Positions 648 to 55,681 of a stretch of DNA of 64,000 nt are shown in pieces. Location of the stretch: positions 21,699,150-21,763,149 of the forward strand of contig OZ316896.1 of NCBI GenBank assembly GCA_973895155.1, in the 5' to 3' direction. The DNA is from Marsupella aquatica (taxonomy: Eukaryota; Plantae; Marchantiophyta). The notes below the pieces were generated by a model. The model was not told where the DNA came from and made no database searches. It worked only from the letters and a program-made list of their open reading frames with translations. The stretch's first letter is position 1. Each line of letters opens with the position of its first letter. A program made the translations under genes and the position numbers.

Positions 648-3600
648 AGTTCCTTCTCCTGTTCGTCGAACAGGGTGCTAGCTTGCTCGATGGCGAGCTT
701 TTGCTTGCTGTCGATTCTCTCCCTAACCCCAGATCGAGGACCTGCATCAGACAGGAACTTCAGATGTGAATGCAACCCATTGATGGTGACTTCAATTCTC
801 TCGAACTTTAGTTCTAAAGATTCTCGATTTCAAAACAAAACACAACAGAATGTGATATTTTAGGATTCTGTGATCGATCTACCGAACCCGGCCCTCCTTT
901 CGCACGGGAATGCGGAAAAAGGCTGACGCACTGGCCGGCATCGATCGGTTGCCGCAGCTTCTAAAAACCAGGGACAGCCTTTAAGGGAAGAATTCCTTTC
1001 CGATTAATTTCCCTTCTAGCTAAAAGAAATCAGAAACAACATGGACTGGCTGCAAGGACCGGGACTGGATTCTGTGCGATTCTGTCTTGTGTATCGTTAC
1101 CCTTCTGCGGTGCATGTAATGTAGCTACCAACAAAATAAAACACAGACTTATTACAATATTCTCACTACAATGAATGACGGCATACTAAATTTGCAAGGA
1201 AAGGTACTCTCCGTCCTAACTGCTACTCAGAAGTGATCGGGCGACTATCAAGCCCGTGACGTAGATCTAGGCTACGGCGAAAAGAGATGTGGCCCGAAGA
1301 TGTCGAGAGGCCTCGGAAATCCTGCGGGACAGTTGTGATCTTCTGTGGAGAGAAATATCTACTTAGTCAGACTACTGAGATAGGTAGCGCAGCAACGTAC
1401 TAATACCGTTGTTCTTCCGTAACCGCGACAACTTCTGTCAGAGATCTTTGACTAACTAGTTGAGGTTCCATACGTGCAATGTCGCTGACGTAATAAATAT
1501 CTGAACGAGAAATATGCTCTGAAGTACAATTGTACAACTTCCAAGTTGAACTTCCAACCCTCTCAATCATAAATTTGTTCAAGCTAGAACATAAACCTGG
1601 GTCGAGAACATAACTGGGTATCCTCGCGCTCTGAACTTCGTCTAGTTGTGAAGTGAAATTATAAGGCACCAATGCCACTAAAGCTTGTCTCTGCGTCTGA
1701 AGTTAATGATACCTCTTACTAAATTTCTCACGTTTTTGCCGTATATCTCTCAGTGAAACTAAAAAAGTTGACTAGCAGAGTATCTGAAAACGTTTGAAGT
1801 TAATGACAAACTCCGCGGACGGCTAGGTAAGGCATGTATACCGATACTTCCTTTACAGCAAAGTCGCCCTCACCGGCTGTCAACAGTCCACGGCATTGGG
1901 CTGGCTCCAGGCGAACAATTACTTCAGCATTTTGAGACGCAAGTCATGAACTTCTCAAACAACGACAAATTCAGAACCAATCTAAACCTATTCTCCTTCT
2001 TCGCAAGTTGGTAATCCACAGAAATGTTAAAGGGAAAGGGATCCCATCATGCTCGGAGAGGTACCTGCGTCGACTCGGTTCGAAGACTATATGGCGATAG
2101 AGAAGAACGACCAGCGTCTGCAATGTTTTAAAATTGACACAGAAATGATTTCCAGCTCACAATTCCAAGCGGTATCGTTCTCAAGATGTTGTGGAAATGA
2201 AAGCATGCATGCTTCTACTGCCTATATATACGCATTCACGTAGGTGAAGAAAAAGCCTTTTTATACATGCAATTGTTAAGTCCAGATGGTCATCTCTACA
2301 CAACACAACATGCGGGTGACCTGCACTTGCCTGGTAAAACCCTCACACCAAAACCTCCATCAAGGAAATCCAGGAGGGATCATTGCTGTCAATTCAAGCT
2401 AACAGATTGAAGTAACTGGTGGATCGAGGGACGAAAGTGATTGTGAAGGGCTGAAACGGATTGGAGCTCAAGAGTGCAAAACGAAGCCAGAAATGAAAAC
2501 TGGTTCTCTCCTTTCAGCAATCTCCTGAGCTATGCAGCGGTACAGCACGAATGATCTGTTTGTACCGGGGCTCCATCTCTCGGACTCACTGGGAAACGAG
2601 ATGTTCGTAGGTACGAGGAATGCATATTTGTCATCTCGTGTCTCGTCTTATAGCAGCTTCCGGACAAACTGCTTTCTCTGTTACGCTAATATTTATGGCA
2701 AATAGTATAACGCTTTAGCAAGATTGGTTTTCCTCACCTCTAATCTATGTTTGCATTAAAAAAGAGCACAGCCATATTTCATTGATGTGATCGTTCTAGA
2801 AAACTAGCCTCATTACCAGTTCCTTGAGAGAGATGCTCTCCTCCCAAAGAAAAACTACCATTTTTTAAAGTGTCAAACAAAGTCCAATGGAGTTAAGGGA
2901 AACGAGTTCCAAAGAGGACAAAACCATGAATTTATGCAAACCCCCAAAACCTCTAAACAAAATTGTTGCACAAAATATCAAGGTGAGGCCAAAAAAAATT
3001 GCAAGTGAAATAAAGAAGGATTGTTACTCCGACTATGTAACTGTGTACTAGTAAAGGTTGTGAATGAGAAATCTCATCGTTTTCAGTTTGCACCATGTGG
3101 TGCAAAAATGTGCTCTTCTGAGGGCAAGATAGCTGCCGCGGGTTGGGAGTCCATCCATGGTCACACAACAGGGGAGAGGTTTTTTAATTTTTGTTTGCTT
3201 TTCATTGTATTTTTGTTTATCACGGGCAGGTGTAAGGCTAGGCAGCTCAAGCAGCTAAGTGAGGCAAGAGAGGTCTATGGGCGAATCTGATGGTGTGGAA
3301 AAACTCAGTTTTGTTGTGAGATTACCCGTTCAACAAACATTTTCTTTGGCATTTTTTCCTTCTTATCAAAAAACAATCCCCCTTTTCATGGGATTACTTA
3401 TTTTACTATTTGATCCCTCGGGATTGAACGGATCCCTAGAATTGCCTGTGTCACTGTTGCTTGAGCCTATGATTGTGTTGAGCCCAATGTGATCCATAAA
3501 ATTGGGGTAGTCGCAGCTGCAGTTGGATGCATAGAAAGACTAGCACTCTGATCTAAAATTAGAATCAACAGTTTATTCAACCCGTAGGCACTTATCACAA

Positions 3601-3680
3601 ATGAAAATATATAGTATGCTCTTGTGTTTTGATTTGTGATTAGAACCAGGCCATGTTGCTTTTTGATGTCAGTGCACATA

Positions 3681-3864
3681 CTAACTTGCTGTTGTTTCCT
3701 GATGACAATTATAGCCAGGCAGGAGATTAGGGTTAACGCTTCAAAACTGTGTGGCTAGCTGGCATCCAACTCTAACTTGCTGCTGTTTCCTGATGACAAT
3801 TACAGCCAGGCAGGAGATTGGGGTAAACGCTTCGAAACTGTGTGGCTAGCTAGCATCCAACTCT
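3681..3864. repeat. Tandem duplication, 2 x 91 bp
   Basis: CTAACTTGCTG(T/C)TGTTTCCTGATGACAATTA...GCATCCAACTCT starts at 3681 and again at 3772. Confidence 0.85.
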
Positions 3865-5255
3865 CCTGCAAGCCAAATAGTGCAGCTGACTAGCATTCAA
3901 CTCTTATGCAACTTGGTATATCTATTTATTAAGTAATAAATAAACTCGTCCAAGTTCCATTACAAACCCACATACATGTACACCCAGTTTTCCAACCGTT
4001 CTGTTATGTCTCCCTTTAACCATATGCCCCACATGTAGGTCTACCGTTCTTGTAAACGCATTTACCTAACCTAGGTGCACCTGTATTTAGCACCCAAGGG
4101 GCATGTTGCATGAAAGAAACAAGGTGTGCATGATTAGCCAGATCCACGTGCAAAACTATTTCACTGTTTATTCTCGTGTACACGTTTAAGGGTCATTCAA
4201 GGGGAGACTGGATTGCTTACTGTACCTGACTTGCTCGAAGAATCATTGTTGTGGAGAGATGACTTGGAGCTCAGAGGTCGGACTGACTCAATTATTTTGA
4301 AGCATACAGTCGCATGGTATTATTATTGTACACATTCTAGTAAAACACAACAGTCACCCTTTCTCCTCCTTGGGTATCGTCCACCCTTGTGGGCTACCTC
4401 ATAGTGATGCATATTCCATAGTAGAACGTCCATTATATGTTAAAATGAGTTTACTTTCAGCTCTCAAGGTAAAAACGAAAACCAGCACCCTGAACTCCTC
4501 TACTTGCATGATGGCTCCTGCGTTACACTTTCCAGTCTTCGAGGTACTTGATAGTTCTTTAAAAACTGGATAGTGAGCAGACTGTTGAGTGGCTTTTGTG
4601 AGTGAGTTTGCTGAGATGCCTTTTGACCTATATGGACAATCCACGTGATTGGAGGTATATGTTTGGAAATAATGAATCAAATAAGAAACTTAAGGGGGTT
4701 CATTATACCAAGAATTATTCTGCCTCTAAAAATTGAAAGGTTGCAGTGTAATTCAATAAAACAACAAAAATATAATCTCAAATAAATAAAAACTTAAACA
4801 TACACCAAAACAAAATCCTGTGCTGGTCAAGTTTTATTTTCAGGGTGGGCCACACCATCTCAAAGCACGGCAAGAAACCTTTGCAAGGAGTATAGCACAG
4901 GTTCTGGTATTAAAAGCACTCTCAGTAGGAATTTGTGCCGTTTTGTACCTTAGAAGAACGATGTAAAGTACATTCAGAGGGACCAGAGTTGCACGGTGTG
5001 TTCCCAACATAAACCCCCTTCAGATCATTTCTAGGCTTAAAAGTTGGAAACCAAGAAGTCAAGATTTGAACCCATAGACCTCATTTTCTCAGGTCAATTT
5101 TACTTCCAGGTAAACTACAAGGCTCAACCGTAAACTTTCTTCGAGGTTAAGATACACTTATTTTATTCTGGGTTTCAGACTTGCCCATGCCATACGTGAA
5201 TTTTCTCCCTCTGTACCCTGGACTCCACTATTGCTGGCCCATGCTGGTACTCATG

Positions 5256-19756: not shown

Positions 19757-21726
19757 CTGCTTTACGAGAAGCCTCCGCGGCCCACCCCCAGTGTATCTTC
19801 CCCTCCCTTTCAGATGACACCCACATCATTGGTCCACCTGTTGCTGTTACTTCTGCCCTCGCCACCCTTTCCACCCATTTGTTGGGCCTCGGTTTACGAG
19901 TTCAGCCGGTGAAGAGTCGTGCATGGAGTCCAGCTGGGTTACCCTCTGATCTTGCGCTTCCCCTGGGTTCTTACGTCCTACCGACGGTCTTCGGGTCCTT
20001 GGCTCCCCAGTCGGTACCGCCTCCTTTTGCTCATCTTTCATTGCTGACGCTCTCTAGGCTACCTTAGCCCCTACTCCTATGCTCCCTAAGTTAGCAGACT
20101 CTCAGGCAGCATTTGGGTTGTTGTTGAGATGCATCCACCCTCGTGCGTCCTATTTGGCTCGGACACATCCCCCTACCGAGGATCTTTATCTACACCTCCG
20201 AGCGTTTGATGTCTCCATTCGTGAGACTTTGGCCTCTCTTTTAGGGCCAGGTACTTTACTCTCATCTCCGTGGCTTCATCGACAGCTCAGTCTTCCTATT
20301 TCTCACGGTGGTTTTGGGCTTACTTCCACTGAGCGCCTTGCACCTTTGGCCTTCTTGGGCGCGTGGGCGGCCGCCTTCTCATTGTTGGCTAATCGTTTCC
20401 TTACTGAGGATCGACCTTTTTTACTTTCATCCCTCATGGTCGTCGAGGAGGGTTCCCTCCCATTTCAGGTTCATTTGCGCACGGCGCGGTCATCATTACC
20501 CGATCCTGTTCGAGCTGCGTTACCTTCATTCCAGGAGTTTTTATCCTTGGACCCCGTCCGTCTTCAGGCAGACCTTGCTGGGCGTATGCACGCTTTCACC
20601 CTTTCCAGCATCCTCACCGAGGCACCTGACACAGACCGAGCTCGGATTCTTTCTTCCGGGGGGAAAGGCGCAGGAGGCTGACTTCAGGCCAATCCAGTCA
20701 TTCCTCACCTGCGGATGTCTTCAGCGGAGTTTGCGACAGCCATGCATCTTTGTATGGGCTTGCCCCACCCACTTCTTGCTGGTTTACCTCCTACTTGCAG
20801 TTGTGGGAAGCCTTGTGATGCCACAGGTGTCCATCTTCTTCGATGCGGTTTGGGCGGCGAAACCATTTTTGTTCACGACGCTGTGAGAGATGCGACTGCT
20901 CAGGTTCTCTCTGGCTCTTTGGTCTGCGCGCGGCGGGAGGTGGTGCTCGAGTTACCTGGTCCTCCATCACAGCGGTTACGGGTGGATCTTACCATGGTCT
21001 GTGACGGTCACCGTACTTTGGCAGATGTAGTGGTGGCAAACCCATTGCGCCAAGACATCATTGGGACAGCGGCAACAACGGCAGGGGCAGCAGCATCATG
21101 AGCAGCAACAACAAAGGAGGCCAAATATGCTGCACGAGCTTCATCTGATAGCTTCTTGCCCCTTGCTCTTGAGATATTTGGGCGTCTCCATCATCAGTTC
21201 GACGGGCTTCTTCGCCAAGCTGCTCGAGATGTTCACGGCCGGATGGGTCCCACCGGGCCCCCGCTATCTATTTTGACCACGCACTTTTGCCAACGCATTT
21301 CAGTCACCTTACAGCGTGCTCAAGCTCGGGCCGTCTATCGTCGATCTCTGACAGTGGGTGCTAGTGTGACTCCGCAGCGGCTAGCCCCCCTAGAGGACAT
21401 TCCTGTCCCACTTGCCGATCTAGTTTCGACACTTGATGTAGACCACTAGCTTGTTGCCACATTTGCTAGGTATGATGAGGACCTCGGTCCATTTGCGGTA
21501 GTTTTAGTTACTCTTTCTTGGTTTTTAGGGGTTTCTTTTTGCTCACTTCTTTTAGTTCCTCTTTCTTGGTTTTTAGGGTTTCCTTTTGCTCACTTCTTTT
21601 GCGTTTGGTTTTGTCCACTTGGGACCTCTCTTGTTTATTCTTTTGTACTCTATTTGGCCTTTTTCTGTATAAAGTATGTGTATATATATATATATATATT
21701 TTTTATTTTATTTTTTATTTTATTTT
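19757..21726 (+). mobile_element. 5'-truncated non-LTR retrotransposon of the RLE type (CRE-like), decayed
   Basis: RT C-terminal motifs (FPSLSDDTHIIGP, GLRVQPVKS, GLRVLGSPVG), QLSLPISHGGFGL, Zn-knuckle CSCG...HLLRC...HDAVRD and RLE motifs RVDL...DVVV...KEAKY...PLALEIFG. In-frame TGA stops at 20679 and 21099. (TA)n/(TTTTA)n tail. Candidate TSD TAGTCTTA at 19749-19756 and 21727-21734. Confidence 0.88.
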
Positions 21727-22183
21727 TAGTCTTAACCATTGATGTTTGTTGATCAATGATGAGAGTTGTGCAATGTGGGTTGATGCACAATAATGTCGCT
21801 TGTGTAAAAATTGTCATGTGTGCGAGAATGGAAGTGCGCAAGAATAGTAATGTGTGTGAGAAGTATAACGCATGTAAGATCTATGCTAGTTGTCACTCAA
21901 AAACTGGGAAAGAATAATTATTAAATATGGGCCAGTAGTGTGGGTCAACTAAGTTGAAGCCAAAATCAACATGGATCTCTCATAAAAAATCATTTTTGTT
22001 TTACTCAACCAAATGGGCTGAACATTCTCTAAGGGATAGAGAGGAAAGTTGGGGAATCTAGTATTAAAGTTGGAGCTCAAACTTAGCTCCAAATTGTGAG
22101 TTAAAAAATATATTGATTTGAAAATTTTGTCTTAATCCAATCTCATCAGTCTATTCATTAAAACTGGAAAATTATTTGATCTT

Positions 22184-22310
22184 TGGACATTTGGGCACCA
22201 AAATATATACTTTTGGGTACAAGAATTATACATTTGGGCAGTGAAAGTTGTATATTTGGGCACAAGATCATGTACATTTGGGGAATCAAGATTGTATATA
22301 GGGGAAAATG
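22184..22310 (+). repeat. Left subterminal ~22-bp repeats of the transposon
   Basis: About 5-6 units of (T)ACATTTGGGCACAAGAATT-like sequence. Similar units in the same orientation lie at 35396-35458. Confidence 0.7.
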
Positions 22311-22871
22311 AAATATTAATTTGGATTCTAAAGAAAAACATTTGGGTGATAATAATGTAAAATATGTTGGATAAGAAGTAGAAAATTGATTCAATCTGAC
22401 TAACTAGTAAGTAAGTAATATAATATAACTAAAGCTAACTTCAATATGATCTCGACCCTAGCTATTGTAAACCTTCTACGTAATAAATGAAAGTATTAAT
22501 TTATAAACTTGTCAGAATGGTATCTATCCATATTAATTCAAGTAACTAACTAATTTGTTAGTACATTCTACAGTAAGCAACTCGAGTTGAAACTAAGGTT
22601 TACTAGAGGCAGTCACATCCCATCACGGATATGACTTCTTGTAATATAGTCAGATAGTATATTATGTAATTATAATTAAAGCAATTAATATAAAGGTATC
22701 CAAGTCCAATTAATACCTCCTGCCCACCTATTCAAACTAGTCTCCCAAAATATTATAAAAGTTACTTAGATTCACTAGTAACCAACTAGCTAGTACGTAA
22801 ACTAAGACATTCCAAACCAATTGACATACTTAGACTCCCTCACTCTGACTACTAGAAAACTTTAATTTGAC

Positions 22872-25800
22872 TTAATGAACAATCCCTTCCATGTAGGTTT
22901 TGAGTGTTTTCAAAACACTCTTGGGAATGGTCAAACCTCTATCAATTATATTTTCTTCTCTAGAGCGTGACTTGAATCCATACATAGCAGAATTAGCAAA
23001 TTGCCAACGTTCAGTGGCACTGTCAAACCCAGGATCCATCTCCCAAGTCTTAGTGGTCTGAAAGCAACGTGAATATCGCACATGATCCGGTGCATCATGT
23101 TTACCATGTTTAGGCCTCCACCATTGCACTTGGAACATAGGAGCATACCTTGTACTAGTAGAAATACTATTATTGCATTGCAAGTCTCCTGAAGGAACTT
23201 CATGGTTTGGGTCCACAACACCCAAAGCTCTCACCAACCAGAAAAGTTCCTTGCCATTCTTCTTTTCCCATTCATCCTCTGGACGAAGAAATACAAAGTG
23301 TCCCTCTTCAATGTCCTGGAGAGGAATCCAACGGGCAAGTTTTCGCTCGTGTCGAGTGCCAACAAATGGTGCAGTTTGATCCTCCATCTCTTCCAGGTAA
23401 TCATTCTGAAGCTCCACCATTTCTGGATTTTGTGTACTACTACTAGGTTCCCCCAATGGTTCAGAGGTTCCTATACTATTCACCTTGTAACCAGTTCCGT
23501 GGTTGGTTTTTGGCCAAAACTCATATGTCAATGCCAACTGTACTTCGGCCTCCCCTTCAATTGTAAGCTCCCCAGATAATACTTGCACCACCATTTCCCA
23601 ATATTTCACCAAAGGAAACCTCTCACGATATGCTGTAGAGGTCTCATCCTTACAACTCTTCTTCAAAAACTCGATGTAACGATTAAGGAATGGGATGATT
23701 TCTTCAACCTTGCCTCGTACATCCCCGGAGATGGGTTTTGCAAACGGTTGACCTTCTGGTAAAATGAGAGCATTGGTGTTGGAATCAGTTCTCCAAATGG
23801 ACCTTCCGGTTGGAGGATACCAAGGTTGTTTCACATGTGCTTTGTATTGATATACTGGAACATTATCTCTCATAGAGAAAAGAAATGCCACTGGTTTTGA
23901 GTGACCCTCTATGTCTTTTACCTTGAATGTTTTCAAAAACTCTTTGTAAGCTGCAACCTCTTGAATCAACCGTGGAACAGGATGAATGCTTTCACACTCC
24001 CAAACCTCAGCCATCAACCCCAAGAGGGTAGAAACCTCCTTGTACTTCACTTGGTTGGATACTTTTGAAAACAATGCATCGACATCCTCATGGGTGTGAC
24101 CAACCATGAGAAATGACATCTGCACTGTTTCAAAGACCCCTCTACTAACAAGCTCACTGCAAAATGCCATCACGTATTGGTTTTTGTTATCTTTCCATGA
24201 ATTATCCATTTGCAAGGTCAGGTGCCTTGGCAATGGTTTGAAAGAGGTAGCAGCCTTGGGATCAATACCAAACTCGTCATCCACCACATTTGATAACCCA
24301 ATATCTTGGTCATCTTCAACTCCTTGAAATCTAGCAATTGAGACTTTTTTGGGTTCTAAGTACCCTGCAAGAAATGCTTCAAAGTCCAAAAGAGATTGAA
24401 AAATTGGCCTCGTTGCAGCCCAATATAACCCTTCAAGGAGGTCTCCAGATTTGTCCCCCTTGTAATCCTCCAGATCTCTAAGGCACTTGGCCAACGATGT
24501 CACTGTGAAGTCTGCATCTCCCGGCCAAAGCTCAGTGAAACTGAAGTGAGCATACACTCCGGGATCCCTTCCGTGGGTCAACATCCCAGTGAGCGCAATG
24601 GGGAGAGGTTGACCACTGCCAGACAATGATTTAGGAGTGGGGACCAACCTAGGGATCCATGTCTTGGCTTGGTCCATCTTGTCATGTATAATGCCAAAGA
24701 TAGTTCTCAGGATCCTTCTTCGCAAGAACCCTGTGAGCATAGTAAACATATCTCCTAGACATTTGCTCACGAAGATGACGAGCTCTTCTTTCCTCAATCT
24801 CTAAACGCTCTTTCTTTCTCTTCTCACGCATCAACTGATCTTTGAACTCAGTGCAAAGTATACACTTTGCAAATGCACTACCCTTGTGAAAGTCAAAATT
24901 CATGAAGGACTCACTCCAGAGTTTATACATAGTGTTTTCACTCACCTTCACGTAGCCATCTAATTCCATCTTGGAGTACACCTCCTCAAAAATCTCTTTC
25001 TTTGTGAAACAAGATGGAAGTCTATACTCAACCGTGTTAGTACCATGAGACCCTCCATAGGGTAGATGCGGCATGGGTTCTCCGTTTTGGGTTAGAATGG
25101 ACTCCAACAAAGCACGAGCGTGCAAGGTGCTTCCCCGTGTCTTGTGTGAACCCTTGTTTCCATGGAATTCAACCTTGCAACCTGCTTCGTATTGATTTTT
25201 GTAATCATAATACTTGGCAGTGCTGAATCCATGCATTTTAATAAATGCACCCTTGCATACAAGTCGACCTCTTACAACAAAATATCCTTTTGTCTCCACT
25301 TCCTTCTCCCTGCAACCAAAAAGAGTGAAAATGTGACTGGTTTTGTTGTCGCTTGACATCCCATGGTATTCCCTCCTTATCGCCTGTAGGTCTTCTCTCG
25401 GCATGTTGAGGCAACACTTCAACTTACAACAACCTTCTCTTTGGATGGAATCAATTTCCTCTTCTGTGATTTTCAGAATTGCCCTTGACTCCAGGTGCTT
25501 CTTCCTTTTTTCATCAGGGTTCCCCTTCGTTCTCTTGATGAAATTATAAGGCCGTTTTGAAAACTCAGTATGACCATTCATATCTACCTCTAGACGATCT
25601 CGACCATCAATAATTGGCTCGGGAGAAACCTCTCCAATGAGATCCAGAAGAAAAATCCCCCTTGATATCAGCACAAGTGAACGGATGGCCCACCTAACAA
25701 GACCGGGCACTCCGGGGGAGATATTCGGGAAAAATTGAGGGTCAATCACGCCTGTGACAACAACCCCAACGTGATCTGGCCCAAGAACCTCATCATCAAT

Positions 25801-26591
25801 GGCACCGGACTCGAAAGGAACTGTGATGATGCCAAGCCCGACCTTGGTCCGATTATCATCAACATACAATTCCACTTCCTCCGCCATCCAGTTCGAACGC
25901 AAACTATAATCTTTGAAATTATAATTTCCAAAAACATCCCGTGCGGACGGCTCATCTAGTAAATCATGTGAAGAACATTCCTTAAATTCCAGATTACAAA
26001 ACTGTCCAATCCTTCCTGAACGGTAACGGCTCCAGCGTGCGGAAAGGGTAACCTCTCCATTCCTTGAACAACTTCACATATCTTCACACTAATCCTATCA
26101 GGGCCAAGTCTTTCATTGTGACAAGTCTCATCGGGATTCGTCTTGAATACAAATCCTCGACACACAATCTGATTTCCAATCGAGAGCTCCACTTCATCGC
26201 CATCTGTAATTGAGTCTCCCAAACTTCCCACCACAGATTTGTCAGGTAAGCAATTGGGAAATGAATCATTTGTAGAACATGTAGCATCCACTTGTGTCAT
26301 CGCTGGAGTTGATTGTGACCTCAAATATGCGAAAGAGGCATCCCAAATAATGCAGGAGTCTACAACATCAAAAAGTGTTCTGATCGGTGGCAACGGGAAT
26401 GGAATTTCTCGAGATCCATAATAGCACCTCTCAATAAGAACTCCTATACGATTAATACCCAAATCAACGTTACGCACTGAGTCACCGGGGTCAACCTTAA
26501 GGACTGTTCTAGAGGCAACTTCAACTCCGTCAAGTAAGAGGGAAACCTCGTCTCCTCGAAAGAATATCCCCATTTGGAAAAGATGTTCCAA
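22872..26591 (-). pseudogene. Sola/DUF7869-like DDD transposase (~1240 codons) with three N-terminal Tnp1/En/Spm-like domains; two frameshifts; start not resolved
   Basis: Core motifs IIHDKMDQAK, LTLQMDNSWKDNKNQYV and FLMVGHTHEDVDALFS. Cys-rich CCKLKCC / VCKGAF..HG / FAKCILC. Three track ORFs join through frameshifts near 25970 (NVLH to HDLLDEPSARDV) and near 24697 (ENYL to IIHDK). Confidence 0.85.
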
Positions 26592-26667
26592 ACAGGAAGC
26601 TGTTGTACCTCGAGATGATCTCGAGGTAAAGTGACTAGCAAAAACAAACCAACAGAACTAGCAGTAA

Positions 26668-26903
26668 CAGATTAAGAAGTCTTTAGCTCGAGACAATCTC
26701 GAGGTAAAGAATGGACCACAAAAACCATGAGATATAGATTAACAAAGTCTTCAGCTCGAGATGATCTCGAGGTAAAGAATGGACCACAAAAACCACGAGA
26801 TATAGATTAACAAAGTCTTCAGCTCGACACGATCTCGAGGTAAAGAATGGACCACAAAAACCACGAGATATAGATTAACAAAAGTTTTCAGCTCGAGACA
26901 ATC
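26668..26903. repeat. 68-bp tandem repeat (~3.5 units), each unit containing the element palindrome
   Basis: CTCGAGA-type starts at 26687, 26755, 26823 and 26892 within GAGGTAAAGAATGGACCACAAAAACCA.GAGATATAGATTAACAAAGTCTTCAG units. Confidence 0.9.
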
Positions 26904-27349
26904 CACATGAAGAGGGAATTCAATACTTCCCACGATCAATAATCCACCCTAGAAGAAGAACTATGAAGTGCATAGAAACAACAGCTCATAATAACTCCTC
27001 AGAGAAGCATGAACTCACGCAAGAGAAGGAAAGATACTTAAATACTTGTGGATTTAAAGGAGCTAGAAACAAAAATAGACAATTCCCAGGAAGATACCTA
27101 AAGCTCGAGACGATCTCGAGCCACAAATGACACTCTAATTGAAAAATATGTTGGAATGAATGAGGAGCTCTAGATGATCTAGAGGTAAAAGTTTGACATT
27201 GAAATACATAAAGTAGGCTTACAGAAGACTAATGAGAAATGAGAAATAGCTTCAAAAAAAAAAAAAAAGGTTCACAAATGGATTCTGAGTGGCAATGTTT
27301 TAAGCATAAATGGTTTGGTATTCTAAAAGGTATGGGTTCAATTATTTTA

Positions 27350-28052
27350 GACCAACTTCATGGCTTCAAATGAGAATGTCTCCAAAACCAAATAAACAAC
27401 TGAGAGAGAAAGGGATTCGAGAATAAATCTAGAGCCAGAGAACAGGGAGCGAGAGGTAGGGGCAGGAAGAGGGATAAGAGAGAGAATGAGGGGAGCAGGA
27501 AGCGAGCAATGAAACGATATCTGAAGAATGACCCGGTGGGGAGGAAAAACGAGCAATATATAAAATCCTACCTGACCAGACGGCTCTGTCAAACCAATGG
27601 CAGGGATGAACTAGCGGCAGGGTGAAGTACGGACCGCAATAATGACGGTACGTGTGACAGCACCGTCATCATGACTCAACTCAAGATTCACTCCCACGCA
27701 TGGGCGCGTGGCATCCTGCACGTGGCCGGGCATCAGTCGCCGGGCACCCCAGCCTGACTTAGGGCCGACTGAGCGGCTTATAGTCCACATTCGTAATGTC
27801 GCCACCCTCATTTGCACATTCGCCTCCCTGCCTACCTCCCCTCCGCGCCTCACTCGCCTCTTGCTTACTGCCTCTAGATATTTCGTCGCTTTTGCCTCTA
27901 GATCATTATTTTTCCCTCGAGACTTGTTTAGGGTCAAGATCCCCTTTGAGCCTCGAGATATTTTATAGCCGTTTGGATCGGGATTTTCCTGTGAGCCTTG
28001 AGACAATATTTTTCTTATATCACCCAGATCTAGTATCCAGTATCCAGTAGCC
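27350..28052. promoter_or_regulatory. Putative bidirectional promoter region between the transposase (leftward) and cargo (rightward) genes
   Basis: GC-richer non-coding core at 27600-27860. TATA-like ATATATAAAAT near 27557. Purine/pyrimidine skew flips across the region. Divergent ORFs lie on either side. Confidence 0.4.
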
Positions 28053-31000
28053 ATGTCGATCGTTGTAGATTTCTCCAAGGACGACTTCGCCGAGTACGAC
28101 ACATCAACTGTAGCGATGGAGCTTCAGACCCTTCTAGATTCATCGCAGAACATCCACCGCACTATCAAACGTAATATATTATCTTTTCTCATTGTTAGAT
28201 GGAGGTTTGGCTCGAGATCATCTCAAGCTTCAAATCATACTTGGTTTTTGATCCACTTGAGGGTCGAGATCATCTCAAGCCGATTGATATTTTCTACATT
28301 ACTTTGCTTCAAGAGGTGGCTTCGAAGTGAACAAGTTTATCGTTTGTAACTGAGATTAGGCTCGAGATCGTCTCGAGCCTAATATCCATAAAGTTAAGAG
28401 GTTTCTGTCATTTTCATATTGATGTATCTGTCAGATTGTTGTATTTGTCATGCTGTATCTGTCAAATACTAACAGCATATCCAAAAGGGATTATGGAAAA
28501 GGCAGATTTAGATTCCTATTGAATATGTTGTTCGTATTTGACGGATGTTTTATTATTTCCGATGGAAAACAATATCCTTCAGAAACCAACATCATATCGA
28601 AAGTCGTCCAAGCTTGCTTCTGAAAACGACTTCTGTACTCTCCAACTTGTTCTGATCATGGAAATCATCCTGAGTTAGAGAGTTTTTGAAGCCTTTTCTA
28701 GAGGTAAAATTGGACAACTTTTGAGTATGTTGTTCGTATTTGATCGATCATATTTGAGAATCAATGTCTTCAGTGAAGAAACATGATAATGCAAAGATTT
28801 AGTTAACGGTGAACGAATGCCAACTATGAGTCTCTGTATTCTAACTTTTAGAGACTTGGGTCGAGATCATCTCGACCCAAGTATTAAAATATCCAATTCA
28901 TCAACAATATACTAACTTTTTGCCTTGTCAGATTTTTTGCGTATGGAAGACCACGTCTGTCGAAAACCAACATCCTATCAAAAGTCGACCAAGCTTGCTT
29001 CTGTCAACGACTTTTGTACTCTCCAACTCGTTCTGATCATGGAAATCATCCCGAGTTAGAGAGTTTTTGAAGCCGGTGTTAGACGTAAGCTTGGTCAACC
29101 TTTGAGTATGATGTTCGTATTCGATGGAGATTCTCATAATTGAGAATCGATGTTTTCCTATGACGAAATATGATAATGCAGAGATTTAGATAACGTTGAC
29201 TGTTTAGCCATGATTGACTCTTCCTGTATTCTATTTCTAAAGTATTGTTCATGAATTTAGGGTCGAGATCATCTCGAGCTTCCATTGTATTCCATGGCTA
29301 CTTGCCATCTGTAGATTGCAAAATACCCTCCAACTCGTTTCCATTGATGATTGGGGTTCGAAAAGGTGATTGGTAGTTGGGTTTATGATATTTTAGAATC
29401 AATTCCTCCCCCCAAATACATCTAGCCATGAAACAACAGTTTTGTACTTATTTGAGTTCAACTATGTTAATGGGTGAGGGAAGCTCGAGATCGTCTCGAG
29501 CCTCTTACCGGATTTCTCATTTCTGTGATTCTGACAATTGGTCTATTTTTCATTTTTTCCAGGTGCAAAATTGGGATCGCCCAATTTGATTGTTGAAGAT
29601 GAACATGCCCTTGAGGTTTTGTGCCCTGGACAAACTGATATAGGATTCTGTTGGGCCATTGAGCTAGCTGAAATTGAGGAGATGGAGGGGTCAGTTATTT
29701 GTTTGAAGACGCGGTCTCCATCTACCGAACCTCTAGTTTGCAGCTTACTTGGGCCTGTTGTTTCCATTGTCACAAGTAATGGTAAGGAGATGATCTTGAC
29801 GGTGGAGAACCATGAGACTGGGAAATGGGCTCTCATTAGGCTTCACTCCAAGAACTACTCGTGCGATCTTAATATTGAACGTGCTGCTAGGAAACAACTG
29901 AGCGTGATACCAATGGGATTCTTCCCTGATGGATTTACTGCCAGTAATTTGTTGGAAGAGTCCAAAATGACTGGGGCAGATATAATTTTTGGATTCTTGT
30001 ATTGCCGGAAATACGGTTTTGATCATGACAATGAATTCACGACTCCTTTCACTTGGAAGGTTTTGAGAATAATGTCAGATTCCAAGGTGGGAGAGTTTCA
30101 ATCCATTTCCCCTGATTTTGTTTTTGGAGCTGGTGAATTTGACGAGGAAGGGTGCAAGAAGTGGGTGTTGTCTCATCGGAGACAAACAGGTAAAGGGAAA
30201 TCAGGAGCTGCAGGAGATAAGATGTCAGGCTCGGACAAGAAGAAGGTAAAGGTGGCGCAAAAGAGGAAAAGGGTTGAGAAACCTGAAAGCGGTTCGAAGA
30301 AGGCTCCGCCTAAGAAAAAGTCTGCTCCTGTAAAGGTAGATCTCATTCCGGCATCTTCTTCGGGTGTGATTGCACATACCGATGATGATGGCACTCCAGG
30401 AGATGCTCCGGGTGAAAAGAGCGTTAAAGAAGGAGCCGAAGTTCTTAAGGAGATTGAGGAGTATTACACATTTGGCATGAATGAAACTTTTGACATTCCT
30501 GTCACTAGTATAAATTCACCCTCTGCAGTTTTGGTATATAGGATGTTCAATAAGGACCATGCCATGGAGATTGCAAAATCCATGGTTAGAAACCCTGGAA
30601 TGGTACCAGCTGTGGCGGATTTAATTCCGTATTCAAGAGAGAGTTCGCAGTTGCTCCATTATGATAATACTCCTGAGGATCGAAAGGAGTTCGAGTGGGG
30701 TGTTAAGAATAAGAAGGTGCAATTCCTTGCAATTAGTGGACAACACTCGGCCAAGGCAGTAGTTTGGATCATTGGTTGGTCTAAGAGCGATGCAAAGTTG
30801 AAGGAGGTCGCCAAGAGTCTTCAGCTTCGAAAGTCACGAATTCTTTCGGACAAAACTCCAAGAACAATACTTGCTCAACACTCACAAAGGGCAAATGCAG
30901 TTAACAAGACGATGGAGTATGAGTCCTATTTTCTTGATACTATGGTCCATGCCCGTCGACAGTTTGACGAGTGTGGCCGTCCCGAGAGACCCGTGATTGG

Positions 31001-33500
31001 GTCCAATAGACTAACGGATCATCAAAAGTTCCAGGTATATTCGAACTCAAATCCACTTCTAGCTTGAGATTGTCTCGAGCCTCGAGGTCAAGTTTTTGTA
31101 TTCAAGTCTTTTTCAATAAATTTCAACATAGTTTCTTCTACCTCTAGATCGTCTCGAGCCTCAGTTTTTCATTGTTATCTTTGGATCAGGATTTCATGGC
31201 TTTGGCCAAAATAACGACTGGAAAATCCGACCTGAGGAATATTTTTTGGTTGTTGTTTTTGGAAGAGAAACTGTTCCAGTCTTGGAGACTAATGTGCATC
31301 GATTGGGTCAAGGGGCTGATGGACTTGGTGAGTTAGGTTCAAAAACGAATGGGAAAAGCCGGACAACCAAAATGATTACACCGGCATTGTTTAGATGCTT
31401 TGAAGGGGACCTCAGTAGTGAGGACATTCTAAAGGTGTTCACCGCCGTTCATCATCAGAAGGTTCTATTGAAGAAAGACCCGACGAACAAATCTGATGTT
31501 CAATCAATGAGTGACATGGCCCATATGTTTAAAGTCATGACAAAGCTAAAGGCAAAAATTGTGGAGTACTATGTTTTAAAGTATCCCGAACATTTTTCCG
31601 ATTCACTTACTTGGTTTGAGCTAACTCAATTTTTGCCAACATTTTTAGATCACGGTGAATTGCCGAAACTGAGACAGCTCGCTAGTGAGGTTTGGCTGTC
31701 CAATCTCCTAAAGAGAAATAGGGCCAAAGAACCATTTCCGCAAAGTCTCATTGTGAGCTTGAGCAGATATACTACAAGACGTTTGGTGGGACTCCTGCTA
31801 TGGTGGATACTCCTTATCGCAGTTTTTTAAGCGATAATCTTATGAGGACGATGAAGCCGGAATCAGTTGGACCCTTTCATAATACGTGCGCACTTGCCGT
31901 TGTCGACTTTGGTCGTATTCGACAACGTCAATGGACAGATGCTGAGATTTTTGTCTTGTTGGAATATTGTCTGGAGATGTCTAACTCAACCGAGTTTTTG
32001 GAAATCATTTTTGTTCGTCAAGGCCCTTTAATAGGCCAGATTCAGAGTGCCTTCGAGAAGTTCCGTCGTGAGAAGAAAGTCCACACTAAGCTCGAGTACG
32101 GTAGTTACTACCGTGAAGATGTACCCAAGGAGGAAGGTGACTTTCTCATAGGAGCACGGGACACTATCATTTTTGGGGGAGTTTGTTGTGACGAAGAGCC
32201 TGACTGGTCCCAAATTTTCTTCGACGATTTTTATGCGTTCTGGAATTACAGTGCTAAGTACGACAAAGACTTCACCGTCTTACCGATGAGGTCTTCCGCT
32301 GGGAAACGCAAGGATCAACAAAGAGGGAAAGAGAAGCAGGATGAAGTTGGAGTTGATGTCGAAGTATTGGAGAAGATGGCCCCGTCTTATGAGATGGTCG
32401 GTAGGAGAGGGGGCTTTGTAAACCCCAGAGCTAAACCTATACGAATGACAAAGCGTCTTGTTGATTATTTCTCCAGCACTAGTCACACAGTGCTTGACTT
32501 CTTCTCCAAAGGGCAGACCCTCAAAGCTTGCGTCATTGTTGGTCGGGATTGTTTTGTTTATTCTGACACAGCTCAAGAGATGGAATTCATCGAAGCTTAT
32601 GCGCGGCTCCTCCATGACAACCGCCATGTTTTATATATTCCACCCCCAGAGTCGTTGCCATCTGAGGCCATTGAAGCCAGTCCCCTTACTGTTTTGGAAG
32701 AAGTGGCCTCGGATCCAGCTCCAGTTGAGGCGAGTGTTACCGAGGAAGTTTTTGCGGAGAATTTGGAGCATCGCAAAACAGAGGGCCCCAAAATCCCAAG
32801 CTACATGGAAGAGGAGGGTGAAATATTGCCCGAATTTAATGAGGTAAATGATGGTCGAGATGATCTCGAGCTTCCTGGTGTACCTTCTTCGGTGGACGCG
32901 TTTCATGTAGAGGATGCACAACATGAGCAGCAGTCTTCAAACTTGGATGTTGGTTGGGAAACCACCTTGCAGGACGCTGCCAGCCACCCAATTCCTAGCC
33001 CACCTTGACTCGATGAGATCCTTTCAACCAAGAAAGCTTGTTGCTCCCCTGCCACAACTCCCCCTCAGGACGAGGCAGGTGCATCGTCCTCTCCCTTGGA
33101 CCAAATGTTTTGCGCTTCAGAGGATAAGCTTGTTTTCACATATTCTTCTACTGGAAGCCCCGTAATTCTCCCTTTTGTTAGGAAACCTGGTGTTGAAATC
33201 GGTAGAACTGGCTACAAATCTCTCAAAGCTAATGCTACTCATTATGTGTGGATTCATGGTCCATCAAAAGGAGAACAAGTCAATGTAGATCAGGCTGAGA
33301 AGATTATGCGTTCCAGGGATTATAGGAAAAATAAGTTTAAATTAGTGCCAGTTTGGTCTGAGCCAGCTCTTGTTGAAACGCTTCCTGGAGGGATCAATTT
33401 GGACATCCAAAACCAATTAGGAGATAACCTTCTAGATGAATTTGGGTCTTTCAGCAAGTGACGTTGAAACCCAAGCTACCTTCAGTCCTCAAATTCAGCC
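28053..33500 (+). pseudogene. Transposon cargo gene: basic NLS-like segment + ParB/Srx(DGQHR)-like domain + degenerate beta-class N4/N6 DNA-methyltransferase-like domain; spliced, several lesions
   Basis: Probable ATG at 28053, large exon 29563-31034, GT..AG intron 31035-31189. ParB-like FDIPV...VYRMFNKDHAMEIAKSM...FLAISGQHSAKA (30483-30760). MTase-like NPRAKPIRMTKRLVDYFSSTSHTVLDFFSKGQTLKACVIVGRDCFVYS (32421-32565). Frameshifts near 31320 and 31750, in-frame TGA at 33006. Confidence 0.6.
28560..29280. repeat. Internal direct duplication of ~0.3-0.4 kb, each copy ending in the palindrome
   Basis: AAGTCG(T/A)CCAAGCTTGCTTCTG...GGAAATCATCC(T/C)GAGTTAGAGAGTTTTTGAAGCC at about 28600 and about 28982. 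Confidence 0.85.
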
Positions 33501-33726
33501 ATCTAAATTATTATGTCTACCTTCACAGAGATAGGCGGGCCATTACCAGTTGTGGATTGCGTCGACAATAGTCTCCGAAGCTTTCCACATTCTTTGACAT
33601 CTGCCCTTCAGCCAATTGCAGGTTTGTCGCGCACTGTTGTTCATTTACTTTTCATGCTCGAGATCATCTCTAGCCTACCTTTATTCTGTCTCACACAATT
33701 CTAATATAGGTGTCTCTTGTTTGCAG

Positions 33727-34783
33727 GACCCTTGCCTCCACTTCACGGTCCAATCAGACGGAAGCTATTGATTCTTGACCTCAACAAAATGTGTTGGGAT
33801 TCTGTTAGAACTCCGAGTCCTGGACCGCGCCGAAGTGCCACAAGTGTCAAGGCTGTTCATTGGGGGAGACGTGGAGGATTTAACTTTATGTATGTTGAGG
33901 GTCCCCATCTTCACGAGTTCTTAATCGCAGCTTTTGCTATATTTGATGTTGCCATCTGGACTTGTGCAAGAAAGCCTAGGGCAAATGAAATGATTCATTT
34001 GATCTTCACTCAAGAAGAGCAGGAGCAATTCAAGTTTATTCTGACGCAAGAAGATACATTTGACATTGGAATCCAGAGGCCTGACGTCACCGAAGGAAAG
34101 GCAAATATTCTTTTGAAGGATTTGAGGGTTGTTTGGAAACGTTATGGTTTATTATACGATGAGACTAATACACTCCTCCTTGATGACTCTCCAATGAAGG
34201 CGTTTGCAAATCCAGAGAATTGTGGATTGTTCCCTTCTTCATTTTCGCATCACTCCACGGATGATACTTTCTTTCCCGAAATACTGTGGCCTCTGCTGAG
34301 GAAATTGTATCATGCCTTCAATCTTCAACACTACCTATTTATCAATCAACCAAAGTGGTCTATGATCAATGTTTTATCGGATAGGGATCAACAGGTTGCC
34401 ATTTATGCTCTGTTGTCGGAGAGGTGGGGTAGTATGGTATGGGTTCCCAATGTTATCCATACAGTCTTGGATGTTACAGCGGACGAAATTCCCTGGGATA
34501 TCAAGAATGAAGTGCAACAATTGCCACCAATTGAGGAATTGACGGAGGAGGCGATCGAGGACCTTATAAGGATATTAATTGGGGATCAGTATACAGGACC
34601 CTATAGAGACAATCATCTGGCATTTGTTTAGGAAGTTCTGAGGACTAGAGACCTCACGACTAAGTTTTGGAATAGAAATCCTCTGGATTTCTGCAATCGC
34701 GATATGAAATATGACCCGTCAGGGTCTAGATTTAATTGCTCAAATGAATTTTGCGAGGAGGAGGATCATGAGATTTGGGTCTA
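33727..34783 (+). pseudogene. FCP1/SCP/NIF-like HAD phosphatase domain carried by the transposon (separate gene or last exon of the cargo gene)
   Basis: RKLLILDLN...PHLHEFL..AFAIFDVAIWTCA...LKDLRVVW...YDETNTLLLDDSPMKAFANPEN. Acceptor TTTGCAG ends at 33726. The TAG at 34629 looks premature because the frame stays open to about 34783. Confidence 0.8.
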
Positions 34784-35547
34784 GATGATCTCGACCCTAC
34801 ACCAAACACTGATTATTAGTTAGGGGTATATGTTTGCAGGAAAGCGTGAAGCTTACCGTAACATCCATTTGGGTCTAAATGTTCTCGACCCTCTACTGAA
34901 GAAATAGGGTTTTACTTATAGATATATACTCATAAAAAGGTTAGTCTATTCGGGGCTTAACCCTGTACAGAAAGAATAGTAAGTTAAAGATATACATTCA
35001 ACAACGGGTCAGAATTATGTGAACCCTCCATTTGGGTCGAGATGGTCACCATATAGATTTTTACAGATATGCATTCAACAACCGGTCAGAACCATCTGGA
35101 CCCTACATAGGGGTCAACGTGATCTCGACCCTGTAAAAATAGGTTTTATAATTTTATAATACATCACTTGTTTTCCTGGAGTTCCGTGTTCATGACCCTT
35201 GGTTAGAGTGTGTCATTTTTAATGTTATCATTTGAATTTATTGTATTGTCAAACTAATATTCTAATATTGTCTTATTCTGTATTTTTATCTGTTTATATT
35301 TATAATTAATAATATTTATAATTAATAATATTTATAATTAATAACTTAGTTATTTAATAATTTGAGCATTACAATTGTAAATTTAGACTTTAAAAAGTGT
35401 ACATTTGGCCACGAAAATGTATGATTTTGGGGACAAAGTTATAGAATTTTGGGGTGTAAAATAATAGATTTAAACGTCAACTTTTGGACTAGAGAAATTC
35501 CAGTTTTAATGAATAGGGTGATTCTCAGTTACGATAAGCCTACTTAG

Positions 35548-35745
35548 GGATGTGTGCACCTTAATATCTTAACTCATAACCTTATCAATTTCAAAGTTAT
35601 AATTGGGGTCAAACAGTACACCAACCCTTGCGGATGTGTGCACCAGAATGCCTTAACTTGTAACCTTATTAAGTTTAAAAGGTATAATTGGGTCAAAAAG
35701 TACACCAACCTTCCGGATGTGGGCACCAAGATGCCTTAACTTGTG
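35548..35745. repeat. ~84-bp tandem repeat, ~2.4 units
   Basis: GGATGTG(T/G)GCACC...CTTAACT...GTACACCAACC recurs at about 35548, 35632 and 35715. Confidence 0.75.
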
Positions 35746-39000: not shown

Positions 39001-39372
39001 CTAGCCCCGACTACCCGTTCTTTGAACGTGAATAGCAGAGAGGACAATAAAGGAATTATTAAAATATATTTTTTATTCATATTCTTTGAAGATTAATGAA
39101 ATGATAAAAAAAACCTAACATTTTAATAGTCATATATAATATATCATTCTCCTTGATGTGCACATCAAGCTTTTTGTATGCACATCCATGTTCTATGCAC
39201 ATATGTTGTGGTGGGGCCATACTACCTATATATTTTGAATGTAAATATTTAAAAATTATCACATAAAACTGACATGTCCATACATCACAGTCATATCATA
39301 AGTTTTTCCCATGCACATGATGACCATAGAGTTATGGTCTAGAGGCTTCACTCTAGACCCTAGCTTGTGAAA
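39001..39372 (-). mobile_element. Non-autonomous Helitron-like element (copy 1)
   Basis: On the minus strand it ends CACGTTCAAAGAACGGG (hairpin)...CTAG|T. Homologous to 55253-55681. Confidence 0.7.
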
Positions 39373-41051: not shown

Positions 41052-41438
41052 CCAGCCTCCATTACTCGTTCTTTGAATATGAATATTGGAGAGTACAATA
41101 AAAGTGTCATCAAAATGTATTCCCTATTCATATTCTTTGAAGGTTAATGAAATGATCTTTGAAGGTTAATGAAATGATAAAAAACAATCATGATGCATGT
41201 CAAAATTTTAATAATCATACATAGCATGCAATCCCCACATCCCTCTTTCTATTCACATATGTTATGGTGGGGCCATAAAGTCCATTTTTTGAATATAAAT
41301 AAAAATCATGACAAAACAGTAACAAAATATATATCTATGGTTATCATTTGTCATACATCATAGCCATGAGTGGGCCATGGAAGTAAGGTCTAGAAGCTTC
41401 AATATAATATAGAAATCTAAACCCCAACTCTAACTTGT
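41052..41438 (-). mobile_element. Non-autonomous Helitron-like element (copy 2, more decayed)
   Basis: Shares CGTTCTTTGAA..TGAATA, ATTCTTTGAAGGTTAATGAAATGA, TGGTGGGGCCATA and GGTCTAGAAGCTTC with the other copies. Confidence 0.6.
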
Positions 41439-42833
41439 ATTCATTTGAAACTTTAAATAAAATTACCAGGATGCAAAGAACATGACACCCTGCAAGTATC
41501 CGGGCTTTGCACTTAGATGGAGCCCACCTGGATAAGTGCAGGCCTTGGGCTGTTCTCGTGAAATGCTTGCTCCTCTCGTGAGACTGCAGCTCTTCTCGTG
41601 AGACTTCAATTCGACATGGTCGACAGTAATTTCAGTTCTCCGTTCGAAGAGGCGATTCGTCGGGTACCTGACCAAAGTACAGTCCTGCACTCGGCCTGGC
41701 CCAGATTCTGAGATAGGCCATTCAGAACTCTCACACTCTTAGAGTCTGGGAGTACGAACAGTTGCATTAAAGGTTTGCTCCTCCAGATTCACGGAGTCGA
41801 ATCTCAAATTCCCATGTAGAGCGATCGCTTCACCCGCCATCGTTAGATTCGCATGCGGTTCTAAGGATCCGGAAAAACCTTGATTCGCTTGATTGTGGTT
41901 GAGGCGGAAGCGAATCGAGCTGTAGGGCTCTACTCTATTAGAAGATGAGATTCAACGCCATTGTACTTGAGAATTCTGACTACGTGTCAACGTGAATGAA
42001 TGACTCGCATGCTTTTGTTTGATATCGAAGGGAATCGAGTTGCTTGCCTACATCACGAGATGAATTCCAAAGCAACTGTACTTAAGAATTCTGACTACGC
42101 GTCCACGTAAATGAATGGGAGGGCAGACTACGGATCGAGAGAGGAGAGGAGAGAGAGTTTGCAAAGGAATTTATGGACAGACTGAGGGAGCGAGACTCAG
42201 GGCCTGAGGATATCCAATTTTCCGGGAGAACCATACTACCACTACCACAGGTCCCGAGTTGGGAAATTTAACGACAACGGTTTCGGTCCGCTTTTTGAGC
42301 GACAGAAGAAAATACATCGTGTAAAGTAAGTACGGTGTTTGCTTCGGGCCCTGAATTGCCCTCGACTCCTGAGAGTTTACAGTCATCTAATAACGGAAGA
42401 TTGGGTTGCTCGCTGACGTCCGAGGTCGCTGGTCAGCTGACGACCGAGTCACTTGTCACCTGACCAGGTCTTTGTGGATCAAGGTTTTGCATTGGACGAT
42501 CGTCTAGACACGGTTGAGCTGTGGAGCTTGGGGGGGGAGCTGGGGGGAGCACGGTTTCTTAGATGGGTTCCTACCTGGAGAATGGAAAGTAGAGTCGTTC
42601 TCGGTGAGAGATTTGTAGTTGAGCTTCGGTGCTCTGCATAAACATGAGAGTAGTTGAGGTCGATCAGGCCTAATTGAGCTTCGGTGCTCACCAAAAACAT
42701 TCGAATAACAGCGACGAAAACTCGGCAGCTTGGACGTGCATAGATCCTGAAATCCTGCCCTCCTTGCAGAAGGTCGGGTCAGCAGTTCCTTCAGTCTTTG
42801 ATCAGAATAGAATCGGGGCTGACGGACTGAAAG

Positions 42834-55252: not shown

Positions 55253-55681
55253 CTAGCCCAGATTACCCATTCTTTGAACGTGAATAGCGGAAAGAACGTG
55301 AATAGCAGGGAGTACAATAAAAATGTCACCAAAATATATTCCTTATTCACATATTTTGAAGGTTAATGAAATGATAAAAAATTATCATACATATCATCAT
55401 TTTAATAATCAGACATAATATACCATAGTACTCTTTTATATGCACTTCCCTAGCTTTTCTATCTTACATCCCACTTATGCACATATAATATGGTGGGGCT
55501 ATAGAGATCAATTTTATAATATAAATAGAAATCATAACAAAAAGCAGTCATAATTATCATTTGACATGACATACATCATAAACATCAGTTTTCTCATCAT
55601 TCCACATGATGAGCCATGGAGTTACGGTCTAGAGGCTTCACTCTAGAAGCCTAGGCCCCAACTCTAGCTTGTAGTTACAGA
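55253..55681 (-). mobile_element. Non-autonomous Helitron (best-preserved copy)
   Basis: Minus strand reads A|TCTGTAACTACAAGCTAGAG...CACGTTCAAAGAATGGG(hairpin)TAATCTGGGCTAG|T: TC start, CTAG end, AT insertion site and no TSD. Confidence 0.8.

Follow-up and report, generated by a model that had tools for sequence, protein, structure and literature searches.

Organization of the Locus

The window investigated here is a stretch of 64,000 nucleotides from the liverwort Marsupella aquatica (assembly GCA_973895155.1, contig OZ316896.1, positions 21,699,150 to 21,763,149); all positions given below are counted within it. It contains a whole DNA transposon of 13,378 bp (22145..35522), now decayed, through which a short palindrome, TCGAGA-N3-TCTCGA, is dispersed. 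The palindrome is a real, selected-looking feature, and we argue that it is quite likely a site read on double-stranded DNA by a dimer that the element itself encodes. The element carries a transposase gene on the minus strand (22872..26573), a divergent cargo gene on the plus strand (28054..33461) whose product has a predicted ParB/Srx-fold domain, and a phosphatase gene, also on the plus strand. A CpG-rich region (27400..28053; CpG observed/expected ratio 0.9, GC content 0.51) appears to be the divergent promoter.

The element is flanked by a 4-bp target duplication, TCTC (22141-22144 and 35523-35526), and bounded by terminal inverted repeats (TIRs) of 25 bp (22145..22169 on the plus strand and 35498..35522 on the minus strand), which are 92% complementary and do not contain the palindrome word. 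The ends can alternatively be read as CA...TG with a 2-bp AT duplication. The label Sola-like is based on characteristic motifs, on the 4-bp duplication, which is typical of Sola elements, and on a parallel in Ectocarpus discussed below; it treats the DUF7869 core of the transposase as equivalent to Sola. The Sola1 target preference is AWWT, which TCTC does not fit. Inside the TIRs lie 22-bp subterminal repeats (22187-22296 and 35378-35471) that share one orientation rather than being inverted; they are possible transposase sites distinct from the palindrome.

Distribution of the Palindrome

With up to two mismatches allowed, the palindrome has 24 matches in the window, whereas shuffled windows hold 2.12 +/- 1.45 and none of 100 reached 24. 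All but three of these matches (21 of 24, spanning 22441 to 35051) are located inside the element, which bears out the confinement proposed in a preliminary description of this DNA; the frequency outside is not similar. A refined pattern, described in the next section, gives 18 matches inside and 0 outside at one mismatch, and 22 inside and 1 outside at two mismatches, counts that are post hoc since the pattern was built from the same sites. The 18 full or near-full copies reported previously were all recovered at exactly the positions given, as were degenerate sites at 22440, 34873, 35036 and 35113 and a half site near 26892. Their flanks are unrelated, as had been claimed: only 3 of 153 site pairs share more than 40 of 60 flanking bases (median 18), and the sole related flanks are those of one 68-bp tandem triple, so that the copies do not descend from a single tandem expansion.

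The sites avoid exons. Only 2 of 22 fall in coding DNA, although about 63% of the element is coding (P=2e-7, with sites treated as independent and the coding fraction approximate, the 5' exons of the cargo gene being unmapped). The earlier placement of most copies in introns, untranslated regions (UTRs) and intergenic DNA holds for 20 sites; the two exceptions are both on the minus strand: the copy at 25588..25604 lies in a linker of the transposase, where it is translated GRDRLE, and the copy at 32854..32870 in a linker of the cargo protein, translated GRDDLE. Upstream of the transposase, a minus-strand cluster (26609..27184) comprises sites at 26609, 26687, 26755, 26823, 27104 and 27168 and includes the 68-bp tandem triple together with the half site at 26892. 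Six more (28211, 28263, 28361, 28860, 29262 and 29484; 28211..29500, plus strand) occupy 5' introns or UTR of the cargo gene, and none is found in the CpG-rich promoter region between these two groups. Two plus-strand sites, 31063 and 31142 (31063..31158), share the 155-bp intron separating the ParB fold from the helix-turn-helix (HTH)-like segment of the cargo gene, and one (33657..33673, plus strand) falls in a putative intron of the phosphatase gene. Towards the element's ends we find a minus-strand cluster on the right (34779..35129), in which 34779 is near-full and 34873, 35036 and 35113 are degenerate, and a single degenerate minus-strand site on the left (22440..22456). Sites of the best quality lie 4-9 kb in from the ends of the element, and decay is furthest advanced in the terminal ones.

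Structure and Variation of the Palindrome

The three central bases had been described as a free spacer. This does not hold: oriented by their centres, all 18 near-full sites read T-[C/T]-[A/G] in the spacer, and the centre of the dyad is therefore 1 bp. The refined dyad is SS-TCKAGAT-(C:G)-RTCTMGA-SS, in which two 8-bp arms enclose a centre of 1 bp and fainter symmetric preferences reach out to about 21 bp; nine core positions are invariant across the 18 sites. Nor do we find support for the idea that symmetric variants reflect a maintained dyad symmetry. We count 124 complementary pairs between half sites; shuffling the right arms from site to site gives 122.2 +/- 2.4 (P=0.33). The halves vary independently, which fits two protein half sites rather than a hairpin. 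Symmetry in the outer flanks slightly exceeds that expected by chance (62 against 51.4, P=0.03), with the longest perfect arms, 10-13 bp, at 26609, 28361 and 28860; these possibly arose by template-switch correction. A methylatable TCGA had been ascribed to every arm, but 6 of 36 lack the CpG, being TCTA-type or altered in some other way, and as far as the sequences show TCGA is thus not essential. We also considered the observation that spacer CpG is more decayed than arm CpG (12/18 versus 3/30) and dropped the argument, as TCA simply makes the palindrome perfect.

The orientation of the centre relative to the gene is the same in 16 of the 17 near-full sites from 25588 to 33657 and flips across the promoter region; local duplication could explain an orientation shared along each gene. 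The palindrome word matched no Rfam family. Among viral contigs there was no relative of the transposase or the cargo protein, and the word of the related locus L065 (see below) had 0 matches; 23 exact matches to the 19-bp window word, all single sites in GC-rich contigs, were taken as chance.

The Cargo Protein

The cargo gene was pieced together from several segments, all on the plus strand. Its 5' exons (28054-29562) were placed by eye only. The large exon that follows (29563-31034) encodes a PH-like domain, a disordered linker and the predicted ParB/Srx fold (about 30450-30980). Beyond the intron at 31035-31189 come an HTH-like and helical region (31190-31760) and a region resembling N6/N4-methyltransferases (about 31760-32620). 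This intron and the continuity of the pieces are taken from natural proteins: P0173 and P0122 bridge the pieces of the window, and P0227 and P0234, from Riccia, hold a ParB-like and a DNA-modifying domain in one protein. With frameshifts near 31320 and 31760 and an in-frame stop at 33006, the gene is broken and this copy of the element is therefore dead. The 5' part of the gene also contains an internal duplication of about 300 bp (28552-28843 and 28932-29233; 80% identical), each unit of which has a 35-bp hairpin and a palindrome upstream.

A HMMER search found 81 homologues of the ParB exon; a word search for longer homologues found none. The large exon, modelled with 77 homologues, has a mean predicted local distance difference test score (pLDDT) of 83.6, with high values within the ParB domain. 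When this domain was compared by Foldseek, the top 16 matches shown were all Noc, PadC, ParB or Srx (best E 6.7e-3, probability 0.99), and with VIA the six best were all of the ParB/Srx family (Z 7.5, root-mean-square deviation 3.2-4.2, 98-120 residues aligned). For this domain, the second of the exon, Noc, PadC, ParB, KorB and Srx outrank all other structural matches, although the scores are modest. Sequence profiles from Pfam, PHROG and PDB did not detect the ParB fold.

The methyltransferase-like region matches PF01555 with E 0.005, below cut-off and over the motif-I region only, and PHROG 3008 with E 3e-6. Such methyltransferases have a characteristic DPPY/SPPY motif layout, and no intact motif of this type is conserved in the proteins of the window, Calypogeia or Riccia; to judge from these sequences the domain looks degenerate. 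A link to Marchantia DN4MT1, whose motif is given as TSPPY (10.1101/2021.02.12.428880), was considered and is not supported.

Homologues of the cargo protein also keep company with DUF7869 transposases elsewhere: 4 of the 8 Riccia homologues that we looked up are encoded within 2 locus tags of one of 95 listed Riccia DUF7869 proteins. A homologue is present in the lycophyte Diphasiastrum.

The Transposase

The coding part of the transposase gene needs no intron. Full-length relatives have a single reading frame, which in the window copy is broken by two frameshifts, near 25950 and 24695. The protein consists of three Tnp1/KOW-like barrels, a Cys-rich and winged-helix region, the DUF7869 DDE core (HDKMD...MDNS...GHTHED; Pfam E 6e-46) and a C-terminal domain. 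Its Tnp1 (PF03017) domains are related to TnpA, and the predicted model of the N-terminal part gives only KOW-like and winged-helix-like matches (Z about 7). The nearest named relatives are proteins of Calypogeia fissa (66%) and Riccia sorocarpa; in a tblastn search the Calypogeia protein P0134, in which Pfam Transposase_23 scores above cut-off, matches the gene at 39-62% identity.

Palindromes in Related Lineages

We compared the element with at least 80 metagenome loci (63 distinct), a set in which the nearest relatives are not included, and with 14 loci from a genome collection; their transposases are more distant from that of the window. At one mismatch, 79 of the 80 metagenome loci lack the window word. 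At least seven related lineages have their own, different palindromes, which are confined to the element where its ends could be mapped. At L065 the word CATCCCAG-W-CTGGGATG occurs in 20 copies within 6 kb, in introns and upstream DNA and clustered outside the transposase exons, and at L012 the word CACGGGTG-WW-CACCCGTG in 10 copies within 3 kb. L001 and L004 have 6 copies each of dyads of their own, at 2 and 4 mismatches. An AT-rich clade, monophyletic for the 8 members placed on the tree (support 100/99), uses the word YTRGTGGCCACYAR; those of its loci with a mapped right end have 58 sites in 52.8 kb inside the element and 2 in 104 kb beyond it. The complete element at L018, which belongs with this clade (11,273 bp, with TIRs starting A-W-C-A and the 4-bp duplication ATAT) has 28 sites inside and 0 in 9.4 kb outside.

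Two further loci, L110 and L112, carry a divergent ParB-like open reading frame (ORF) on the strand opposite the transposase, as the window element does. L112, which also has TIRs, contains 31 copies of GTTGAAATTTCAAC inside them and 0 outside, and at L110 a dyad occurs within a 43-bp tandem array. The alignment of both ORFs to the ParB-fold profile spans from the LPV...R segment to the GG box. The two loci are on long contigs labelled as bacterial metagenome-assembled genomes that nevertheless contain spliced genes and Sola-like elements; the contigs are probably mis-binned eukaryotic DNA. A helicase-like neighbour was noticed by eye at L112. At L073 (1018-5352), a transposase frame of 1445 codons has an N-terminus that looks SET-domain-like by eye.

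Proteins of the closest relative, Calypogeia, suggest that there the window's word persists. Among 163 proteins we found 11 peptides of five residues that could be a translation of the word, 10 of them in Calypogeia element proteins, and two of the Calypogeia peptides sit in the very linkers where the window has its coding copies. A tuned peptide pattern gave 15 matches in 9,409 Calypogeia residues and 0 in 106,266 others; it was tuned on the matches and is not relied on.

What Reads the Palindrome?

Several observations together argue for a site read by a dimer on double-stranded DNA: the halves vary independently, the length is constant, exons are avoided, the sites stop sharply at the element's ends, and the word is replaced by another between lineages. 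The preliminary description had likened the palindrome to the site of a homodimer, as in parS or an operator. This remains the best interpretation, in keeping with the predicted ParB/Srx fold that the element encodes, although the free spacer and the maintained symmetry that went with the proposal are not supported. We propose more specifically that the palindrome may be the binding site of the element's own ParB-fold protein and serve to mark the element's copies, a proposal to which we assign a probability of just over one half. The ParB-fold protein is a likelier reader than the transposase because palindromes accompany ParB-like genes at L110 and L112 and on transposases of unrelated superfamilies (10.1101/2025.02.11.637652), and because the promoter is surrounded, and the introns of the cargo gene are filled, by the best sites whereas the terminal ones have decayed.

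Under this proposal the probable HTH that follows the ParB fold would read each half site of 8-9 bp, and with so many sites spread over introns, UTRs and linkers, the protein would be loaded along all 13 kb. Bound protein might keep the element open or expressed against silencing by host methylation, in the manner of VANC or TnpA; purpose is the least certain part of the proposal, self-marking against silencing being the best analogy that we can offer. The methyltransferase-like domain would then act as a DNA-binding or shielding module rather than as an active enzyme, a part in methylation being doubtful. Protein and word would diverge together, so that each family comes to have its own word, and new sites would arise by local duplication, as in the 68-bp and 77-94-bp repeats.

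A number of observations weigh against the ParB-fold protein as the reader. The fold comparison stays under Z 8, and the ParB/Srx fold is also found in enzymes (Srx, SerK, SbnI). ParB proteins have a CTP-binding box of the form GxxR; at the corresponding place the cargo protein reads GQHS, and ISGQHS is conserved in 78 aligned sequences. The HTH after the fold is probable from a helix-GKS-helix pattern beyond the intron, which no profile matched, and the transposase is modelled with a winged-helix-like domain of its own. The similarity of the divergent ORFs to ParB is weak in both L112 (hhalign E 1.7e-4, probability 50%) and L110 (E 0.027, probability 2%). A ParB-like gene was not detected in any of L001-L103, among them the full-length L018 with its 28 sites, nor in 8.4 kb upstream at L004; these copies have decayed or are short, and a protein supplied in trans could serve them. 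Eleven other distant loci that were examined have no clear word, L056 has only two copies of one, and the closely related L063 (3830-5740) and L080 (1109-5420) have different, non-palindromic, directional words, in 11 and 8 copies. Finally, CpG is not better kept near the palindromes (observed/expected 0.46 near and 0.65 far), and there is therefore no footprint of local hypomethylation.

The transposase is the other protein of the element that could bind the palindromes, through its winged helix or its Tnp1-like barrels or as a spliced product, either assembling a transpososome or activating its own copies in the manner of the AtMu1 transposase and Spm TnpA, with the ParB-fold gene a mere passenger. 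No other gene has been shown in all loci that bear a motif, its Tnp1 domains are related to TnpA, activation driven by a transposase has been reported (10.64898/2026.08.24.746577), and sites are concentrated towards the element ends in L112 and the AT-rich clade. The window presents the opposite picture, with its best sites far inside, its terminal sites most decayed and its TIRs free of the word, and the association of ParB-like genes with palindromes on other transposase superfamilies speaks for a different reader; we consider a transposase site unlikely, although it is the main rival. A neutral origin, in which an old palindrome was multiplied by local duplication, perfected by template switching and tolerated only outside exons, would account for the tandem triple and the 77-94-bp repeats, for the orientation shared along each gene, for the few arms perfect to 13 bp, and for the L110 array, which is a plain 43-bp tandem repeat. 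It would not lead us to expect nine invariant positions in all 18 sites whose flanks have diverged to background, or the same design realized in different words in at least seven lineages and stopping at element ends, and we regard it as improbable.

Equally, there is only a slim chance that the sites recruit a host factor, such as a transcription factor or a demethylase pathway, or that the element's methyltransferase modifies them as a mark of self. The word contains TCGA and GATC, GATC motifs are reported to raise the expression of transposable elements in Arabidopsis (PMC13547354), and the cargo does have a methyltransferase-like domain; against this stand the complete change of the word between lineages, the absence of an intact DPPY/SPPY-type motif noted above and the tolerance for TCTA arms without CpG. 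A role as an RNA hairpin, in splicing or as a small-RNA signal, seems very improbable. It would fit the orientation shared by 16 of 17 near-full sites and the position of many sites 30-60 nt ahead of a putative 3' splice site, but the absence of compensatory changes between the halves disfavours any RNA role, related words have spacers of 0-2 bp, the orientation at L065 is mixed, antisense sites occur as well at the right end, and Rfam gave no match.

Comparison with Known Systems

The layout of a ParB-like gene on a transposon is already known from algae. The main text of a study of Ectocarpus (PMC12477816) describes Sola1-1_Ec32, a giant Sola element with a ParB-like and N4C/N6A methyltransferase gene opposite the transposase, and proposes, without a test, that the protein binds and modifies the element's own sequence; the string 'palindrom' does not occur in that main text and no binding word is named there. 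The window element has the same layout, a ParB-like plus methyltransferase-like domain opposite the transposase, and differs in its PH-like domain, its NIF-phosphatase gene and its degenerate-looking methyltransferase; the two are likened by layout, not by sequence. PAG3/PAG2, from red-algal transposons (Bostrychia) of the Plavaka, Zisupton and Mutator-like types, provide a ParB-like accessory protein on elements with a PF01555 methylase and with inverted repeats that were proposed, also without a test, as the sites of the ParB-like protein (10.1101/2025.02.11.637652). There, however, the repeats form tandem arrays beside PAG3, the ParB domain comes as a fusion with a 2OG oxygenase and the transposase is of the EnSpm type, whereas in the window element each of the three genes has sites scattered over its introns, UTRs or coding linkers.

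For anti-silencing proteins in Arabidopsis, VANDAL/VANC and Spm/TnpA, binding and demethylation have been shown (PMC5735166; 10.64898/2026.08.24.746577). These systems share with the window a short family-specific word in non-coding parts, multiplied partly by tandem duplication and differing between related families. Their words, however, are 8-10 bp long and not palindromic, and the proteins are unrelated to ParB. Unlike VANDAL elements, the window element has a DUF7869 rather than a Mutator-type transposase, and it shows no VANC-type family match. With the bacterial systems ParB-parS, Noc-NBS and KorB-OB it shares the predicted ParB/Srx fold and dispersed palindromes of about 16-20 bp; it differs in having no ParA (family scans found no ParA-like family among the element's ORFs), a degenerate CTP-binding box and spliced genes. 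A role in segregation is not expected for an integrated transposon.

Literature searches returned no liverwort element of this kind, no case from any other land plant and no family-specific dispersed palindromes in Sola elements, although subscription papers and the Bostrychia and Ectocarpus supplements may describe such repeats. Two things are likely new: a ParB-carrying transposon from a land plant, a liverwort, for which a candidate site is defined, and the turnover of words between lineages. In the literature covered, the algal idea of self-binding comes without a defined or tested target word; the present locus supplies an exact candidate site and its tolerated variants. Together with the exchange of words between related lineages, this makes the hypothesis directly testable, among liverworts for which the genetics and methylomes of Marchantia exist, and extends it to land plants. 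If it is true, transposons would have a means of self-recognition that differs from VANC and TnpA and descends from bacterial partition proteins, and it could supply orthogonal DNA-binding pairs. The decayed copy and the known layout limit the surprise. A far broader generalization, that in Sola-like transposons from algae to land plants a parS-like ParB clamp loads at family-private palindromes and spreads across the entire element as a self-addressed anti-silencing coat, while word and HTH co-diverge into a natural library of orthogonal pairs able to function in plant chromatin, is in our view doubtful.

The Phosphatase Gene and Other Features

The third gene of the element (33513..34631, plus strand) encodes a NIF/FCP1-like HAD phosphatase, recognized by Pfam NIF above cut-off (E 9e-16). 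Its first exon (33513-33621) and intron (33622-33726) were placed from GT-AG borders and phase. The frame stays open past the stop at 34629-34631 until a TAG within the palindrome at 34779 (34629-34783), and the first stop may therefore be a lesion. NIF cargo is common to the window element and the complete element at L018, where three tandem NIF-like phosphatase segments (2120-5198, minus strand) form the divergent cargo.

Outside the element, decayed frames at 20058-21450 resemble, by eye and with no significant Pfam match, the end of a non-LTR retrotransposon. An 84-bp tandem repeat (35548-35744) lies just beyond the right end of the element, and a separate dispersed repeat family occurs in the window at 39024-39357, 41080-41439 and 55294-55673.

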